Of a DNA stretch of 64,000 nucleotides, positions 28,545 through 35,031 are shown in pieces. This DNA is from an uncultured Chloroflexia bacterium (GTDB taxonomy: Bacteria > Chloroflexota > Limnocylindria > Limnocylindrales > CSP1-4): contig CAWBQS010000005.1 of assembly GCA_963790915.1 (NCBI GenBank), forward strand, positions 87,579 to 151,578, in the 5' to 3' direction. The notes below the pieces were generated by a model. That model did no database searches. It worked only from the letters and a program-made list of their open reading frames with translations, and was not told the origin of the DNA. Every line of letters begins with the position of its first letter. Position 1 is the stretch's first letter. Position numbers and translations under genes: made by a program.

Positions 28545-28910
28545 GTGTCCTACACGGATCGAACCCTCACATGCGTCGACTGCGGCGTGGAGTTCATCCA
28601 CTCGGCAGCTGACCAGGAGTTCTACGCGGAGAAGGGGTTCGTCTCTGATCCGAAGCGTTGCCCCAGCTGTCGTGCCTCGCGCCGCTCGATGCGCGATACC
28701 AATGGCTACGACTCCCGGGAGATCGGCGGGCCGCGCGGCTACGAGCGTGGCGACTATCGCTCCCCGCGCGAATACTTCGCGGTCATCTGCTCGGAGTGCG
28801 GCAACGCCGCGCAGGTGCCCTTCAAGCCGCGCATGGACAAGCCCGTCTACTGCTCCGACTGCTTCCGTCTCGTGCAGGCCCGCTCGGGGAGCGACGCCGC
28901 GCGCGCCTGA
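28545..28910 (+). CDS. CxxC-x17-CxxC zinc-ribbon domain protein (two ribbons joined by an Arg/Gly/Tyr-rich linker)
   Basis: GTG start after AGGAGG. CVDCGVEFIHSAADQEFYAEKGFVSDPKRCPSCR and CSECGNAAQVPFKPRMDKPVYCSDCF. Confidence 0.8.
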   Translation: MSYTDRTLTCVDCGVEFIHSAADQEFYAEKGFVSDPKRCPSCRASRRSMRDTNGYDSREIGGPRGYERGDYRSPREYFAVICSECGNAAQVPFKPRMDKPVYCSDCFRLVQARSGSDAARA

Positions 28911-29233: not shown

Positions 29234-30817
29234 ATGACCGACAGCGCTGCGACACCACGCATGAAGATCACCTACGCGACGCTGCGGGCAGACAACGAGG
29301 ATCTGCACGCTGCCTTCGAGGCCGGCGTCGTGGCGGCGCGCGCCCGCCTGGGCCGCTCCTGGCCCAACGTCATCGGCGGCCAGGGGCGTGGCGCCGAGAC
29401 CGAGTTCGAGGTGCGCTCCCCCATCGACACGGACATCGTGGTGGGGCGCTTCGCCCGGGGCACCCGCGCCGATATGCGTGACGCCATCGACGCCGCACGG
29501 GCCGCCCAGCCGGCCTGGCAGGCCCTGGGCTGGGAGCGCCGCATCGAGATCCTCCGCGCCGCCGCGGAGCTCATCAGCAGCCGACTCATGGAGTACGGCG
29601 CGCTGATGTCGATCGAAGTCGGCAAGAACCGCATGGAGTCCCTGGGTGAGGTCGAGGAGAGCGCCGACCTGCTGCGCTACTACTCGCAGACCGCCATCGA
29701 CAACGACTTCTACCAGCGACCCATGGGCAACCTTGGAGACCCGGCCACGCACACCCGCTCGGTGTTGCGACCGCACGGCGTCTTCGGCGTCATCTCGCCC
29801 TTCAACTTCCCGATGGCCCTGGCCGCCGGCCCCACCGCCGCGGCCATGCTGGCCGGCGACACCTGCATCCTCAAGCCCGCCAGCGCCGGCGCCATGAGTG
29901 CCGTGCTCCTCGTGGAGGCCTATCGCGACGCCGGAGTCCCCGATGGCGTGGTGAACCTCGTCATGGGCCCTGGCTCGGAGGTCGGCGCGGAGCTCGTCGC
30001 CAGCGAGGCCATCGACGGCATCGTCTTCACGGGGTCCTACGAGGTCGGCATGGGCCTCCAGCGCGGCTTCACGCGCCAGTACCCGCGGCCCTGCATCGTC
30101 GAGATGGGCGGCAAGAACCCGGCCATCGTCATGGCCTCCGCCGATCTGGACGAGGCGGCCGAGGGCATCATGCGCTCCGCCTTCGGCTTCGGCGGCCAGA
30201 AGTGCTCGGCCAACAGCCGCGTCTACGTGGAACGCCCGGTCCACGACGACCTGGTGCGCCGACTGGTGGAGAAGACGGAGGCCATCACCATCGGCGATCC
30301 GCTCCTGCGCGGCAACTGGCTGGGCCCCCTCACCGACCAGGCGGCCGTGGACCGCTATCTCGACGCCGTGGCCGAGGCCCGTCGCGACGGCACCGTCTTC
30401 TGCGGCGGGGAACGTCTCACGGAGGGCGCGATGGCCCGCGGCTTCTACGTGGAACCGGCCATCGTCGGCAGCCTCCGCGCCGACCACCGGCTCTTCCGCG
30501 ACGAGCTCTTCGCGCCCTTCACCGCCGTCCACCCCGTGGACTCCCTCGATGAGGCTCTGCGCCTCTCCAATGAAAGCATCTACGGTCTGACCGCCGGCAT
30601 CTACAGCGCCGACCAGGACGAGGTGGAGCGCTTCCTCGAGGGCATCGAAGCCGGCTGCCTGTACGTCAACCGACGGGCCGGTGCGACCACCGGCGCCTGG
30701 CCGGGCGTGCAGCCCTTCGGCGGCTGGAAGGGCTCCGGCTCGACCGGAAAGGCCGCCCTAGGACCCTGGTACGTGGCCCAGTTCCTGCGCGAGCAGAGTC
30801 ACACCATCGTGGACTGA
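29234..30817 (+). CDS. pruA: Aldehyde dehydrogenase, L-glutamate gamma-semialdehyde (1-pyrroline-5-carboxylate) dehydrogenase type
   Basis: 527 aa with FNFP, VEMGGKNP, FGFGGQKCSANSR, and the C-terminal GVQPFGGWKGSGSTGKA typical of P5C dehydrogenases. Confidence 0.85.
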   Translation: MTDSAATPRMKITYATLRADNEDLHAAFEAGVVAARARLGRSWPNVIGGQGRGAETEFEVRSPIDTDIVVGRFARGTRADMRDAIDAARAAQPAWQALGWERRIEILRAAAELISSRLMEYGALMSIEVGKNRMESLGEVEESADLLRYYSQTAIDNDFYQRPMGNLGDPATHTRSVLRPHGVFGVISPFNFPMALAAGPTAAAMLAGDTCILKPASAGAMSAVLLVEAYRDAGVPDGVVNLVMGPGSEVGAELVASEAIDGIVFTGSYEVGMGLQRGFTRQYPRPCIVEMGGKNPAIVMASADLDEAAEGIMRSAFGFGGQKCSANSRVYVERPVHDDLVRRLVEKTEAITIGDPLLRGNWLGPLTDQAAVDRYLDAVAEARRDGTVFCGGERLTEGAMARGFYVEPAIVGSLRADHRLFRDELFAPFTAVHPVDSLDEALRLSNESIYGLTAGIYSADQDEVERFLEGIEAGCLYVNRRAGATTGAWPGVQPFGGWKGSGSTGKAALGPWYVAQFLREQSHTIVD

Positions 30818-30933
30818 AGCGCCGACCGCACGTCCCCGGTCCGGGCACGGCGGTCGGTCAGCCGGGGGTCGGCACAGACGGCCGTGCAAGGATCAGGCCT
30901 CCTCGGGCGTTCTATCAGTAGCAGGAGGTGCTG

Positions 30934-31416
30934 ATGGAGTCCGTGGTCACGATGAGCCGTCTGGCGCCTTCGTTCGAGGCGACGATGGCTCCCCACTACG
31001 AAGGTCTGCTGCGCCGGTTGACGTTCATCGTCGGCGACCCCGAGGATGCCCGCGACCTCGCCCAGAGCGCTTACCTGCGGGCCTTCGAAGCCTGGTCGCG
31101 GTTCGACGGTCAGAACCCCCGCGCATGGCTCTACACGATCGGCATCAACCTGGCCATCCGGGAGCTTCGCAGGCGCAAGGTGCGGCTCCGTCGCTCTGCG
31201 CCGCCGGACGCCACCTGGGCGCTCGATGTGGACCCCGACCTATGGCAGGCCATCGCGGAACTGGACGCCCGACATCGGGCAGCACTCCTGCTCAACGTGC
31301 TGGACGGCTACACCCAGGCAGAGGTCGCGCAGGTGCTGGGTGTTCCCCCGGGAACCGTGGCGAGCTGGCTCTACCGGGCCAAGGCGCGCATCCGCGAACG
31401 ATTGGGTGAGGTGTGA
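30934..31416 (+). CDS. ECF-type RNA polymerase sigma factor
   Basis: ATG 30934 lies 5 nt after AGGAGG; the track ORF begins at the GTG inside the SD sequence. Region 2: DLAQSAYLRAFEAWSRFDGQNPRAWLYTIGINLAIRELRRR. Region 4: GYTQAEVAQVLGVPPGTVASWLYRAKARIRERL. Confidence 0.85.
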   Translation: MESVVTMSRLAPSFEATMAPHYEGLLRRLTFIVGDPEDARDLAQSAYLRAFEAWSRFDGQNPRAWLYTIGINLAIRELRRRKVRLRRSAPPDATWALDVDPDLWQAIAELDARHRAALLLNVLDGYTQAEVAQVLGVPPGTVASWLYRAKARIRERLGEV

Positions 31417-31856
31417 TGATGGACCGAGATGACCTGATGCTGCGGGAGCGCATGGCGCGGTTGCTCGCGGCGGCGCCCGTGGAACCCGCACCTCAGCTCG
31501 ATCGCCTCCGCCTGGAGCGCAGCCGCCGGGCGAGGCCGCGCCTCGTCCTCGCGATCGGGCTGGCACTCCTCATCCTGACCTCGCTAGCGGTGAGCCTGCC
31601 CACGACGTCTCGCTCGACCTTTCAGAGCCAGCTTCGTGCCCTCGGTGTCCCTGCCGACGCCGAGATCATGACGGTCGGCGGAGATGAATCGGGGAACGTA
31701 AACGTCGTCCTCTACCGCGACAAGAGCGGTCGCGTGCATCACATCGGGAGAGCCGTGGGCTACGAGGACGAGAACGGCAAGACGCATATGTTCGAAGACG
31801 ACGACCCAAAGCCCACGCCCACACCGCGCCCGGTTCCGGCGCACGGCACGGAATGA
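31413..31856 (+). CDS. Putative anti-sigma factor: single-pass membrane protein with a small extracytoplasmic domain
   Basis: The start overlaps the sigma stop. It has a cytoplasmic N-terminus, one TM helix (RLVLAIGLALLILTSLAVSL), and an ectodomain homologous to the three downstream 91-aa proteins. The anti-sigma role is inferred from position and topology only. Confidence 0.6.
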   Translation: MMMDRDDLMLRERMARLLAAAPVEPAPQLDRLRLERSRRARPRLVLAIGLALLILTSLAVSLPTTSRSTFQSQLRALGVPADAEIMTVGGDESGNVNVVLYRDKSGRVHHIGRAVGYEDENGKTHMFEDDDPKPTPTPRPVPAHGTE

Positions 31857-32032
31857 ACAAGAGGCTGGGCGAGACAAGGCCAGCCATCAGTGTGCGAACA
31901 CAAGGAGGAGGGTCGCATGGATGAACCGTCGGTATCGCGGTTTCCCGGATGCCGACCGTCAAGTGACCCCACCGTCCATTCTCATGGGAAGGACGTGATC
32001 ACAGTCTTCTCACATCAGGAGGGGGGATATCG

Positions 32033-32521
32033 GTGATCAAGTTCGCGCAGATCTCGACGGGGCTCGCCTCTGTGACGCTCGCATTGGCTGGCGTGGTCGG
32101 TGGCGCAGTGCCCGTGGCCGCGGACAACATCAACAGCTGCTCGGTCGGCAATTCCAATCAGGTGGTGAAGGTGTTCGAGAACACCGACTTCAACGAGTAC
32201 GACGACGGCATCAGGGATGACCTCTGCTGGCTGGATGGCTACTCGCGCGATGAGGTCTTCGCGACCGGTGAGTCCGGCCTCGACGACATCGGCGAGGATG
32301 AGAGCTACCACGACCTGGTGTCGTCCTACAAGATCAAGAATGACGGCGTCGATGGTCTCTGCGTCTGGTTCTACTACAACGAGAACCGGAGCGGCTCGGT
32401 CGCCGAGAAGGCGTGGGCGGGACCAGGGGAGGGTGTTGTCCCCTACGCCACCGCCCAACACAACGACGCCTACGACAGCGTCGATCTCAAGCGCATCAGC
32501 CAAACACAGTGCATGAGTTGA
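32033..32521 (+). CDS. Secreted Cys-containing acidic protein, hypothetical (beta/gamma-crystallin-like or I36-inhibitor-like fold possible)
   Basis: GTG after AGGAGGGGGG. Signal peptide ...VTLALAGVVGGAVPVAADN, four Cys, and VKVFENTDFNE / CVWFYYNENRSGS motifs. GC3 is high although overall GC is lower than in the flanks. Confidence 0.6.
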   Translation: MIKFAQISTGLASVTLALAGVVGGAVPVAADNINSCSVGNSNQVVKVFENTDFNEYDDGIRDDLCWLDGYSRDEVFATGESGLDDIGEDESYHDLVSSYKIKNDGVDGLCVWFYYNENRSGSVAEKAWAGPGEGVVPYATAQHNDAYDSVDLKRISQTQCMS

Positions 32522-32543
32522 CCCAGCACGAGGAGACAACACG

Positions 32544-32819
32544 ATGGACAAGCGCATCGCTCTCATGCTCGGCATGGTCCTGGCCCTCGCCACCGCCGTG
32601 GTCGCCACCAGCCTGCCGGCATCCTCGGAGTCGACATTGGAAGCCAACTACCAGGCGAAGCTGCGCGCAATGGGCGTCCCCGAGGGCGTCGAGATCTTCT
32701 CCATTCGGGGCGACGAGCATGGCAACCTCTTCGACATCCGCTACCGCGACAGCGACGGGGATGTCCACATCATCGCCCCGCTCGTAGCTCCCAAGGAGAC
32801 CCCTCGGCCCGGCAAGTAG
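32544..32819 (+). CDS. 91-aa membrane-anchored/secreted protein, paralogue 1 of the anti-sigma ectodomain
   Basis: SD sequence GGAGACAAC. MDKRIALMLGMVLALATAVVATSLPASSESTLEANYQAKLRAMGVPEGVEIFSIRGDEHGNLFDIRYRDSDGDVHIIAPLVAPKETPRPGK. Confidence 0.75.
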   Translation: MDKRIALMLGMVLALATAVVATSLPASSESTLEANYQAKLRAMGVPEGVEIFSIRGDEHGNLFDIRYRDSDGDVHIIAPLVAPKETPRPGK

Positions 32820-32903
32820 CACCGTCGGCGACACGTCGAGGCGGACCTGAGACGGGTCAGCCTGGCTCAGTGCCGGGCTGAGCAGCACAAGGAGACAACA
32901 GAT

Positions 32904-33179
32904 ATGAACAAGCGCATCGCGCTCATGCTCGGCATGGTCCTGACCCTCGCCACCGCGGTGATCGCCACCAGCCTGCCGGCATCCTCGGAGTCGACAGTGG
33001 AATCGAACTTCCAGGCCAAGCTGCGGGCCATGGGCGTCCCGGAGGGCGCCGACATCATCACCGCTGGGGCGCACGAAGACGGCAGCCTCTTCGACATCCG
33101 GTACCGCGACAGCGACGGGGATGTCCACATCATCGCCCCGCTCGTAGCTCCCAAGGAGACCCCTCGGCCCGGCAAGTGA
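32904..33179 (+). CDS. 91-aa paralogue 2
   Basis: Same SD sequence, signal-anchor and C-terminal 25 codons as paralogue 1. The middle differs (ESNFQ...ADIITAGAHEDGSLFDIRYRD). Confidence 0.75.
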   Translation: MNKRIALMLGMVLTLATAVIATSLPASSESTVESNFQAKLRAMGVPEGADIITAGAHEDGSLFDIRYRDSDGDVHIIAPLVAPKETPRPGK

Positions 33180-33214
33180 CGTCGTCGGCCCGTGGCGGGT
33201 CCGGAGACAACACG

Positions 33215-33490
33215 ATGGACAAGAGAATCGCGCTCATGCTCGGCATGGTCCTGACCCTCGCCACCGCGGTGATCGCCACCAGCCTGCCGGTCTCGTCGGA
33301 GTCGACAGTGGAAGCCAACTACCAGGCCAAGCTGCGGGCCATGGGCGTCCCGGAGGGCGCCGACATCATCACCGCTGGGGCGCACGAAGACGGCAGCCTC
33401 TTCGACATTCGCTACCGCGATAGCGACGGGGATGTCCACATCATCGCCCCGCTCGTAGCTCCCAAGGAGACCCCTCGGCCCGGCAAGTAG
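33215..33490 (+). CDS. 91-aa paralogue 3
   Basis: ATG 33215 inside track ORF 33176..33490, preceded by GGAGACAAC. Nearly identical to paralogue 2. Confidence 0.75.
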   Translation: MDKRIALMLGMVLTLATAVIATSLPVSSESTVEANYQAKLRAMGVPEGADIITAGAHEDGSLFDIRYRDSDGDVHIIAPLVAPKETPRPGK

Positions 33491-33530
33491 CACCGTCGCC
33501 TGGCTGAGCCAGGCAGCGACCGAGCGACTC

Positions 33531-33568
33531 GAGACCCCTGGCCACCACCGCCGATGGCCGGGGGTCTC
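33531..33568 (+). terminator. Strong stem-loop downstream of the paralogue cluster (terminator candidate, weak U-tail)
   Basis: GAGACCCCTGGCCA pairs with TGGCCGGGGGTCTC for about 14 bp (one G-U) around a 10-nt loop. It is followed by CCCTTGCG. Confidence 0.35.
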
Positions 33569-33693
33569 CCCTTGCGTCCGCGAGACTCGCCTCCTGGAAC
33601 GCCACGAAGCCGTGTCCCGGGCGCGGGCCCTATACTCGGCTATGCAGACTGCATATGTTCCATGCAGGAGGGTCGCCGTCGAAGGAGGGTCCC

Positions 33694-35031
33694 GTGGTCC
33701 AGGTGAAGGCTGACGATCGCGTCGGGGTCATGGCACCGCATCTCGTGACGGAGGTGCCCGGACCACGAGCCCGCGCACACGTCGCCTACGACCAGGCCTG
33801 GACGTCTCCCAGCCTCCCGCGCGCCTACCCGCTGGTGCCCGTGCGCGGCAGCGGCGCCACCATCGAGGACATCGACGGCAACGTCTTCGTGGACTTCGCG
33901 GCCGGCATCGCCGTCAACTCCACCGGCCACGCCCACCCGGACGTCGTGCAGGCCATCCATGAGCAGGCCGAGCGGCTCCTCCACTACAGCGCCTCCGACT
34001 TCTACCTGCCCATCTACGCCCAGACCTGCGAGGCCATCGCGCGCACGGCACCCATGGCCGGCCCGGTGCGCGTCTACCTCGCCAACAGCGGCGCGGAGGC
34101 CGTGGAGGCCGGCCTCAAGCTGGCCCGCCGCGCCACCGGCCGCTCCGGCATCGTCTCCTTCCTGGGCGGCTTCCACGGACGCACCATGGGCGCGCTCAGC
34201 GTGACCGCGTCGAAGGCGGCCTATCACGCCGGTTTCGGGCCGCTCCTGCCGGGCGTCCACCACGCGCCCTTCGGCCACGTCCGCGACCTCGACTGGTTCG
34301 AGGACGTCCTCTTCGAGCGCATCGTCCCGGCCGACGAGATCGCCGCGGTCATCGTGGAGCCCATCCAGGGCGAGGGCGGCTACGTGCTGCCGGAGGACGG
34401 CTTCCTGCCGGGCCTGCGCGAGCTCTGCGACCGGCACGGGATCCTGCTCATCGCCGATGAGGTCCAGTCGGGCGCCGGCCGCACGGGCCTGATGTGGGCC
34501 GTGCAGCACTGGGGCGTGCAGCCGGACATCCTGCTCTCGGCCAAGGGCATCGCCTCCGGTATGCCGCTGGCCGCCGTGCTGGCGCGCGCCGAGATCATGG
34601 AAGCCTGGGGGCCGGGCGCCCACGGCTCGACCTACGGCGGCAACCCGGTCTCCTGCGCCGCCGCGCTTGCCACCCTGGAGCTGCTCCACGACGGGCTCAT
34701 CGAGAACGCCGCGGCGCGCGGTGCGCAGGGCCTCATCGCCCTCGAGCGCATGCGCGAACGCTACCCGGAGGTCATCACGGCGAGCCGCGGCAAGGGCCTC
34801 ATGCTGGCCCTCGGACTGGCAGGGTCGGACCTGGCCGACGCGCTGCAATGGGAGGCCTTCACGCGGGGCGTGCTCGTCCTGGGCGCCGGGCGCTCCGCCG
34901 TGCGCCTCTCGCCGCCGCTCGTCATCGACGAGGCCACCATGGCCAGCGGCCTGGCTACCCTGGAGGAAGCGGTGGCTGCGGTGGCGCACATGGTGGCCAC
35001 GGGCGCGCCGCTCCCTGCGTCCGACCACTAG
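33694..35031 (+). CDS. gabT: Class-III aminotransferase, 4-aminobutyrate aminotransferase type
   Basis: GTG 33694 after GGAGGG, in frame with track ORF 33655..35031. TEVPGPRA, NSGAEAVEAGLKLAR, ILLIADEVQSGAGRTG, and SAKGIASGMPL (PLP lysine). Confidence 0.85.
   Translation: MVQVKADDRVGVMAPHLVTEVPGPRARAHVAYDQAWTSPSLPRAYPLVPVRGSGATIEDIDGNVFVDFAAGIAVNSTGHAHPDVVQAIHEQAERLLHYSASDFYLPIYAQTCEAIARTAPMAGPVRVYLANSGAEAVEAGLKLARRATGRSGIVSFLGGFHGRTMGALSVTASKAAYHAGFGPLLPGVHHAPFGHVRDLDWFEDVLFERIVPADEIAAVIVEPIQGEGGYVLPEDGFLPGLRELCDRHGILLIADEVQSGAGRTGLMWAVQHWGVQPDILLSAKGIASGMPLAAVLARAEIMEAWGPGAHGSTYGGNPVSCAAALATLELLHDGLIENAAARGAQGLIALERMRERYPEVITASRGKGLMLALGLAGSDLADALQWEAFTRGVLVLGAGRSAVRLSPPLVIDEATMASGLATLEEAVAAVAHMVATGAPLPASDH

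Follow-up and report, generated by a model that had tools for sequence, protein, structure and literature searches.

A module shared by a putative anti-sigma factor and by small proteins encoded beside a secreted four-cysteine protein in an uncultured Chloroflexia bacterium

Why should genes for three closely related small proteins lie behind those of an extracytoplasmic function (ECF) sigma factor and its putative anti-sigma factor, and why should these proteins resemble the part of the anti-sigma factor that is predicted to face the outside of the cell? The question is raised by a 64,000-nt stretch of DNA from an uncultured Chloroflexia bacterium (contig CAWBQS010000005.1, positions 87,579 to 151,578; hereafter the window), in which the list of open reading frames (ORFs) contains six + strand genes encoding, in this order, the sigma factor (160 aa), a protein of 147 aa (the long form), a secreted protein of 162 aa with four cysteines (the Cys protein) and three proteins of 91 aa each (the short forms). 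An earlier sequence-only reading had placed the six ORFs where we find them, with the sigma stop codon overlapping the next start, and had regarded the small proteins as an elaboration of the sigma operon, in which free paralogues of the anti-sigma ectodomain could act as decoys, co-sensors or a titratable feedback loop. This idea of an elaborated sigma operon is not borne out by the comparison of loci, where a short form follows the Cys gene every time and no related sigma pair is found beside it outside the lineage of the window. Rather, the Cys protein and its short form(s) are a conserved cassette in their own right, whose adjacency to the sigma pair is special to the window lineage, and the comparative data point to the Cys protein as the third player that was missing beside the decoy, co-sensor or titration idea.

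Two forms of one module

The kinship of the long and short forms is backed by formal statistics, with BLASTP E-values of 2e-18 and 9e-18 and 45% identity over 74 residues, so that the proposal of one module occurring four times in the locus holds. The alignment is not solely one of ectodomains. It begins inside the hydrophobic segment (RLVLAIGLALLILTS.. versus RIALMLGMVLALATA..) and runs through a juxtamembrane S-L-P-x-x-S, a helix with the pattern xQxxLRAxGVP and hairpins leading to YRDxxGxVH, before reaching a Pro/Thr-rich tail. Since it starts in the hydrophobic helix, a short form is best described as a long form minus its predicted cytoplasmic head of ~40 aa. The notion that the ectodomain had been copied as free paralogues therefore stands as far as homology is concerned, but was too narrow in its extent, the membrane helix being part of the match. 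Of the P-x-x-S motif behind this helix, P and S are invariant in both forms. The region looks like a type I signal-peptidase site, with Ser always at position -1 of the putative cleavage site and a small residue (Ala, Ser or Thr) mostly at -3, where some members have Leu or Gln. There is no Cys in any short form, hence no lipobox Cys of the kind that would mark a lipoprotein.

In the AlphaFold2 (AF2) model of the long form, a helix (aa 4-20) is followed by a disordered basic stretch, a transmembrane (TM) helix (aa 42-61) and, outside, a short helix and three strands. The P-x-x-S motif lies at aa 63-66 and the module at aa 70-112, after which come a 17-aa insert and the Pro/Thr-rich tail. The predicted local distance difference test (pLDDT) reaches block means of ~76-82 across residues 71-110, and L74, R75, G78, V79, P80, Y101, D103 and G106 are invariant or nearly so among 18 family members. 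Many long forms (P0012-P0018 and P0020; e.g. L003:6001-6417) have an HCVGRCxG motif directly behind the module, whose two Cys are spaced C-x3-C in general and C-x4-C in P0018; this position reads HHIGRAVG in the window long form, both Cys being lost. The homologous anti-sigma gene of locus L014, an ENA contig, is at L014:5001-5510 and is called as encoding 169 aa, with a deviating C-terminus that reads into the spacer, which is most likely an indel in that assembly.

How widespread is the module? A module profile retrieved 17 proteins among 5.8 billion clustered proteins, an exhaustive HMMER search of 1.84 billion representatives found 26 proteins with the module, and a search seeded with short forms gave 23. 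Three architectures are seen. In long forms of 116-148 aa, a conserved helix at the N-terminus (D-x-x-L-R-x-R-x-x-R-L-L-A-A-x-P) precedes the TM helix and the module. Short forms (84-93 aa) start with a basic stretch, followed by a hydrophobic segment and then the module. A few long forms reach 316-334 aa, and there the module is part of a larger ectodomain. Among the matches listed, the named genomes are two 'uncultured Chloroflexia bacterium' metagenome-assembled genomes, the other relatives being metagenomic; the pattern used to scan a genome collection covered LRA[LMA]GVP-type modules, and its result is not usable for co-occurrence statistics. In the large proteins P0029, P0035 and P0039, the module sits between an extra beta-rich domain of ~150 aa and a C-terminal PPPxVDLGLFR...GELHI; this extra ectodomain was considered as a relative of the Cys protein (a 'Rosetta stone' test) and turned out to be unrelated. 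P0037, P0040 and P0042, which are giant or repeat proteins, were rejected as homologues and their match treated as a YRDxxG beta-hairpin alone.

The module has no significant match in Pfam, NCBIfam, PADLOC or PHROG, its profile matched spurious designed repeats alone among PDB sequences, and a Foldseek search of the PDB with the 147-aa model gave nothing at E below 0.08, in keeping with the earlier view that it belongs to no characterised family. A distant relation to PepSY domains (PF03413, PF13670 and relatives; a helix with a four-stranded sheet), which that reading had left standing, finds no such backing: one of 18 members matches PepSY_2 at E 0.2, none does so significantly, and Foldseek returned nothing with a model of moderate quality. 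Together with the family of the Cys protein (see below), two protein families without a Pfam, NCBIfam or solved-PDB match are defined here.

The three short-form genes of the window form a 284-nt direct DNA repeat of 89-94% identity, and their products are 82-96% identical. For the third copy, the ATG at 33215 was chosen rather than the upstream GTG at 33176, as it is the start that matches copies 1 and 2 in the alignment and in Shine-Dalgarno spacing. The ratio of nonsynonymous to synonymous change (dN/dS) is 0.23-0.49 among the three copies, all of which therefore appear to be under purifying selection overall. Between copies 1 and 2, dN is 0.35 and dS 0.32 in a patch of 17 codons (47-63), against 0.06 and 0.22 before the patch and 0 and 0.05 after it, codons 64-91 being nearly identical even at silent sites. 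The codons of this patch are also the most variable columns family-wide. Such a mosaic suggests gene conversion that homogenises the genes around a specificity-determining patch.

Two separable units

What the short forms belong to is best seen from their neighbours. A short form lies directly 3' of the Cys gene in all ~12 distinct Cys-protein loci, at a distance of 14-22 nt wherever genes were called. In L005, L006, L007, L008, L010, L011, L012 and L013 the gene that it follows encodes a homologue of 132-162 aa, without Pfam domains, that is 41-47% identical to the Cys protein of the window, with four Cys and many acidic residues invariant. Five further metagenomic loci and L016 have the same gene order, and in a six-frame ORF scan with a hidden Markov model no locus lacked a short form behind its Cys gene, that of L009 being an ORF that had not been called. 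Most loci have one short-form copy, L005 and a relative from a Joint Genome Institute (JGI) contig have two, and the window and L014 have three. Outside the window lineage, no related sigma/long-form pair adjoins the cassette in the five loci with at least 2 kb of upstream sequence, where the neighbours are a PadR regulator with a membrane protein, a GH130 enzyme, RodA with a penicillin-binding protein, citrate synthase and a dehydrogenase; in L010, an uncharacterised sigma gene cut by the end of the locus lies ~5.5 kb downstream of the cassette. Since a short form comes after every Cys gene and no sigma pair is found there, the short forms appear to be primarily partners of the Cys protein and not accessories of a sigma operon.

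The long forms keep different company. Each of those whose context was read (in the JGI relative, L001 with two tandem pairs, L002, L003, L014, L015 and the window) directly follows an ECF sigma gene, usually with a stop/start overlap. Adjacency of a sigma/long-form pair and a cassette is confined to the window, to L014 (99.2% identical) and to the one JGI contig, in all of which the genes on either side of the whole block encode an aldehyde dehydrogenase and a class III aminotransferase.

Two observations on the surroundings of the cassette in other lineages can be added. A multi-pass membrane protein of 284-296 aa without a Pfam family precedes it in two loci (L005:2690-3849 and L010:5061-5951; 42% identical to each other), and in L005 this protein follows the PadR regulator, which may offer the cassette another regulatory input. 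In L007, L008, L012 and L013, which form one lineage, DDE transposase genes lie directly downstream on the opposite strand, which hints at a mobile cassette or a variable region.

The Cys protein itself has a predicted signal peptide that ends at about VAA/DN. Its family comprises 23 clusters at 40-90% identity by profile search, in which Cys36, Cys65 and Cys110 are invariant and Cys160 nearly so. The AF2 model has eight strands, with a predicted template modelling score of 0.66 and a pLDDT of 85-93 in the C-terminal half. No Pfam, NCBIfam, PADLOC or PHROG family was found for it, nor any Pfam match in 24 members; the family profile matched spurious designed repeats alone in the PDB, with no sequence relative, and Foldseek searches of PDB and BFVD with the model stayed empty at a threshold of E 0.001. 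Among the weak structural matches, the best (E 0.05-0.5) were GH140 apiosidase, PirA, CBM29 and MiAMP1. By eye, FEHxxxGG, HDxVSS and NDxYDS of the Cys protein resemble what we take to be the Greek-key/calcium-binding motifs of microbial beta-gamma-crystallins, which is a lead and not a result. SMPI, SKLP and Protein S are microbial proteins of this type, with the calcium-binding motif N/D-N/D-x-x-S/T-S. Like them, the Cys protein is small, secreted, putatively disulfide-bonded and eight-stranded all-beta, and it shares the likeness of HDxVSS and NDxYDS; unlike them, it matches neither Crystall nor Inhibitor_I36 of Pfam, and no crystallin is among its Foldseek matches. An affiliation with crystallins, killer toxins or PirA is thus a lead only.

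A secreted disulfide protein followed within a few nucleotides by small membrane-facing proteins brings to mind toxins and their immunity proteins. In such a version of the model developed below, the Cys protein would be a secreted antimicrobial, perhaps of the killer-toxin or beta-gamma-crystallin type, the short forms an immunity array and the anti-sigma factor an immunity-derived sensor that switches on defence. The copy number of one to three, the hypervariable patch with dN close to dS, the transposases flanking the cassette in L007, L008, L012 and L013, the weak matches to PirA and to the antimicrobial MiAMP1 (Foldseek probabilities 0.5-0.8, E above 0.1) and the crystallin-like motifs, in our own reading by eye, would all fit. 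However, no significant structural or sequence match to a toxin, crystallin or immunity family was found, the window copies at 82-96% identity would offer little immunity breadth, and each locus has a single type of 'toxin'. We consider this explanation quite unlikely.

The other unit is of a more familiar kind. The sigma factor matches Sigma70_r2 (E 1.5e-15) and Sigma70_r4_2 (E 3.9e-16) in Pfam, without a region 3, and scores 82.3 bits with the NCBIfam model TIGR02937 (sigma70-ECF; cut-off 42.9); the best-scoring subfamily, TIGR02983 (SigE-fam_strep), stays below its cut-off (109.9 versus 141.55 bits). Its nearest sequence relatives in the PDB are mycobacterial SigE and Bacillus subtilis SigW, and orthologues are found in L001 (sigma 1, 68% identical) and L015 (50% identical). 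With sigma2 and sigma4 regions only and a length of 160 aa (~160-200 aa being usual), it has the features of ECF group 4, including a putative cognate regulator at position +1 with an overlapping start and one predicted TM helix. The stop codon TGA (31414-31416) overlaps the candidate starts of the long form (GTG 31413, ATG 31416 and ATG 31419), so that translational coupling is plausible.

A class I anti-sigma domain is a cytoplasmic helical bundle of ~80-90 aa, often with an H-x3-C-x2-C motif. The cytoplasmic head of the long form has ~40 aa and one predicted helix; the class I anti-sigma domain or zinc-binding anti-sigma domain (zf-HC2, RskA) was not found in it, there being no Pfam match and no Cys/His motif. 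The long form as a whole has no Pfam family either, and with the NCBIfam model NF052375 ('antisigma') it reaches 20.9 bits (E 2.9e-4), below the cut-off of 100. In the classification of ECF sigma factors, a putative anti-sigma factor is recognised by position +1, an overlapping start and a single TM helix with the N-terminus inside (PMC7826278). The long form has this position, overlap and topology, and the description of the 147-aa protein as anti-sigma-like can be kept on this working definition. A putative anti-sigma factor at +1 with a single TM helix and without a Pfam match is indeed the commonest situation in ECF classification 2.0 (PMC7826278). Like generic ECF pairs, the present one combines a factor with sigma2 and sigma4 only, a one-TM partner at +1 without Pfam match and a conserved promoter upstream, and it differs from them in its single-helix head, shorter than a class I domain. 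The sigma/anti-sigma half of the locus is thus ordinary.

A conserved element precedes the sigma gene. Alignment of four sigma upstream regions revealed the invariant blocks TGCAAG.AT and CGTTCTAT (TGCAAGRAT-N14-CGTTCTAT), and the element common to the relatives, CTGCAAG(G/A)AT-N12-GCGTTCTAT, is present in L014 and weaker in L015. A position weight matrix (PWM) scan of 191 kb found GCAAG-N17-CGTTC upstream of six sigma genes and nowhere else, and the element is matched once in the window. Typical autoregulatory ECF promoters have an 'AAC'-type -35 box and a 'CGT'-type -10 box, and the window element has the look expected of such a promoter, a function that we infer from this resemblance. The text of the ECF classification paper mentions neither Chloroflexi nor a GCAAG-N17-CGTTC promoter (PMC7826278).

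A possible link between the two units

If the units are separable, does anything tie them together beyond common descent of the module? Support for a functional link comes from a neighbour-joining tree of the ectodomain columns, where at least three clades contain long forms interleaved with short forms, at identities of up to 89%. Long forms P0026/51/52/53/54 are 83-89% identical to short forms P0043/45/46, with a TM segment that is likewise similar; P0010/11/19 are 64-70% identical to P0025, in a clade that is sister to the window short forms; and P0023 is 62-64% identical to P0031, P0044 and P0050. Sensor and short form would thus either have been exchanged repeatedly or been kept matched, which suggests that the two must recognise the same fast-evolving thing, or each other. 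The head of the long form appears to evolve along another path. In L001 (L001:2238-4429), two sigma/anti-sigma pairs lie in tandem whose sigma factors are 28% identical and whose anti-sigma heads are unrelated. Both anti-sigma proteins of this locus (P0010 is the partner of sigma 2) carry the same TM helix and module, and the sensor has evidently been swapped between different sigma-binding heads. That the head follows the sigma factor and the sensor follows the short forms suggests a sigma-binding head joined to a swappable sensor.

These observations can be assembled into a model. An autoregulated ECF sigma factor and its translationally coupled single-pass anti-sigma factor would make up the first unit, and, head to tail with it, the secreted disulfide-bonded all-beta Cys protein and one to three short forms the second. 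The module of ~45 aa would be the binding partner of the Cys protein. Outside the membrane, at its surface or within the wall, short forms would associate with the Cys protein as an anchor, chaperone or immunity protein. The anti-sigma factor would use the same module as a receptor, and sigma activity would depend on how much Cys protein is left unbound, whether made by the cell itself or by a neighbour. By competing for the Cys protein, the short forms would set a threshold, while dose or specificity would be tuned through tandem copies whose loop varies. The signal would probably be released by proteolysis at the juxtamembrane P-x-x-S|R, in a manner similar to RsiV. In the window lineage, read-through of the cassette from the sigma promoter may close a feedback loop: the 176-nt spacer between the units has no sigma-70-type promoter and no T-run terminator in a consensus scan, nor a TTGAC box, unlike the cassettes of L005, L006, L007 and L016, and in the lack of a terminator-like site and of this box such read-through is possible. 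There is no copy of the sigma promoter motif in the spacer. As a whole, this model of two units linked by Cys-protein binding of a shared module is the one that we prefer, tentatively and as possible rather than probable.

Several findings weigh against it. The window long form is 51-55% identical to the short forms next to it, has the 17-aa insert and falls in a long-only clade, whereas the best-matched long/short pairs lie in other lineages, with P0026 and P0045 coming from different assemblies. The sigma/long-form pairs of L001-L003 and L015 have no cassette in the sequence read. The sigma promoter motif is upstream of no cassette in pattern and PWM scans, and the cassette is not demonstrably in the sigma regulon. 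The likeness of P-x-x-S to a signal-peptidase site was judged by eye, and the model of the module is moderately confident (overall pLDDT 65).

Some of these points are equally what would be expected if there were no cross-talk at all, that is, if both units used independently a generic small envelope domain (directed at the wall, the membrane surface or calcium) and their adjacency were an accident of rearrangement. Adjacency in one narrow lineage (the window, L014 and the JGI contig) and the motif missing from all cassettes fit such an explanation, as do the presence of the module inside larger unrelated ectodomains of P0029 and P0035 and the G+C content, whose fall from ~0.69-0.76 in the window to 0.66-0.68 at 30-34 kb would agree with a recent insertion. 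This is nonetheless a tiny family (a few dozen clusters in 5.8 billion proteins) and nearly every full-length member with context read is coupled to a sigma factor or a Cys protein. Moreover, it is difficult to see how long and short ectodomains could repeatedly be nearly identical unless they shared a partner that evolves fast or were still being exchanged. Independent use is regarded as fairly unlikely.

The lineage-wise similarity of long and short forms would be equally expected if both had to recognise each other, as in direct decoy or titration. Here, the module would self-associate and short forms would pair with the anti-sigma ectodomain by sheet augmentation or as heterodimers, shielding it from proteolysis or exposing it, and the Cys protein would be an output or a mere neighbour. 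Both proteins have the same helix-plus-sheet module and a TM helix that could pair in the membrane, and there is a precedent in ECF107, where two putative anti-sigma factors may form one complex or compete (PMC7826278). Yet short forms adjoin the Cys gene without a related sigma factor or long form in the five loci with at least 2 kb upstream, and the neighbouring long and short forms of the window are the least similar type of pair. We regard a direct decoy as quite unlikely.

How does binding of a Cys protein by a shared module compare with known systems? In the Sigma-V system of B. subtilis, the single-pass anti-sigma factor RsiV binds lysozyme through its ectodomain and is cut by signal peptidase only after binding, this first cut falling at a site similar to that of a signal peptide, directly outside the membrane (PMC6066255). 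Amphipathic helices of its DUF4179 domain cover the site. The resemblance lies in the membrane segment: the TM helix and P-x-x-S of the long form are homologous to the apparent signal peptide of the short forms. Unlike RsiV, the long form has no DUF4179/RsiV domain, its ectodomain of ~45 aa is unrelated, the ligand would be self-encoded, and both ligand and cleavage are inferred; the search gave no DUF4179 match, and of the RsiV-type features a general small-x-Ser site after the TM helix is alone present. We know of no free paralogues of RsiV. In SigI/RsgI of Clostridium thermocellum, the anti-sigma ectodomain consists of carbohydrate-binding modules that sense polysaccharide and also occur in secreted proteins. 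As there, the sensor module is also found in exported proteins of the same system, and sharing of the module would reveal what the sensor recognises, but SigI is not an ECF factor and that system has no small protein-binding module and no free tandem paralogues next door. SdpI of the B. subtilis SdpC/SdpI/SdpR system is a multi-pass protein that protects the cell and sequesters a repressor. The parallel is a secreted disulfide protein with a membrane protein that signals its presence to a transcription factor; immunity and sensing are one protein there, whereas here they would be two paralogues. In Escherichia coli, the exported RseB modulates cleavage of the RseA ectodomain, and is likewise an extra exported protein encoded with a sigma/anti-sigma pair, but it is no paralogue of that ectodomain and no secreted ligand gene accompanies it. 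By its features the locus is a member of none of the RsiV/lysozyme, RsgI and SdpC/SdpI systems. The locus stands out in three respects: its sensor module also occurs in the putative partner of a secreted protein, long and short forms follow each other from lineage to lineage, and all parts are adjacent here.

A bolder claim would be that this is an undescribed design, in which a sensor has been recruited repeatedly (in at least three lineages and on at least two unrelated heads) from the exported partner of a secreted disulfide protein, and in which the cell's own or a competitor's protein is measured by competition between receptor and partner and by ligand-gated cleavage at a site derived from a signal peptide. 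We consider this unlikely; if true, an ECF sigma factor would receive a protein-based input of the self/non-self or quorum-like kind, whose ligand had been identified by genomics alone. Apart from this bolder claim, what the anti-sigma ectodomain senses is established for a minority of ECF sigma factors, while here a candidate ligand, the Cys protein, can be named, and with it a putative built-in competitor, the short forms; as the system consists of six small genes, the hypothesis is directly testable. Should the preferred model be wrong, one is left with an ordinary ECF pair beside an uncharacterised secreted-protein cassette.

Layout of the locus and its surroundings

The features of the locus are collected in Table 1.

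Table 1. Coordinates of the features discussed, in positions of the window
Feature	Position	Strand	Basis or remark
ECF-type promoter-like element 5' of the sigma gene	30884..30915	+	GTGCAAGGATC-N12-GCGTTCTAT, core GCAAG-N17-CGTTC
ECF (group 4) sigma-70 family factor, 160 aa	30934..31416	+	Pfam domains, TIGR02937
Long form, putative single-pass anti-sigma factor, 145-147 aa	31413..31856	+	overlap with sigma gene, AF2
Ectodomain module of the long form (FQSQLRALGVP...YRDKSGRVHHI)	31620..31748	+	one helix and a three-stranded sheet
Intergenic spacer between the two units	31857..32032	+	176 nt
Secreted 4-Cys all-beta protein, 162 aa, GTG start	32033..32521	+	signal peptide, family alignment, AF2
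Short form copy 1, 91 aa: hydrophobic N-terminus, module and Pro-rich tail	32544..32819	+	
Variable patch of the module (first strand, hairpin loop), shown for copy 1; codons 47-63 in each copy	32682..32732	+	
Short form copy 2, 91 aa	32904..33179	+	
Short form copy 3, 91 aa	33215..33490	+	
GC-rich hairpin after the last small gene	33531..33568	+	14-bp stem

The spacer is structured at the RNA level, with a minimum free energy of -70.1 kcal/mol and z = -2.83. An ORF of 39 codons within it (31918-32037), preceded by a strong Shine-Dalgarno sequence (AAGGAGGAGG), overlaps with its end the GTG start of the Cys gene; its frame is broken by a 1-nt indel in the 99%-identical L014, and it is either non-coding or L014 has an assembly error. 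A GTCC(A/C)TTCT element is found ~40-60 nt 5' of the start of the Cys gene in several otherwise divergent loci (31974-31982 in the window; L007, L011 and L016). In L007, L011 and L016 it sits 3' of a TTGACA box, a box which the window does not have.

Antisense ORFs of 208-210 aa across the locus were rejected as artefacts of high G+C content, conservation and dN/dS favouring the + strand genes, and Rfam gave no match on 30.5-34 kb. Two genes upstream of the locus, at 28545-28910, is a gene for a 121-aa zinc-ribbon protein with CxxC pairs, whose homologue in L014 is annotated zf_Tbcl; synteny is kept, with no evident tie to the locus. At the other end, the hairpin that follows the last short-form gene folds with -58.4 kcal/mol (z = -4.86), was missed by the consensus terminator scan because it lacks a clean U-run, and is a probable end of the transcription unit. 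Finally, the block of sigma pair and cassette (30001-34000) has a G+C content of 0.66-0.68 against ~0.73 in both flanks, and may have entered the interval between the genes for the aldehyde dehydrogenase and the aminotransferase relatively recently.

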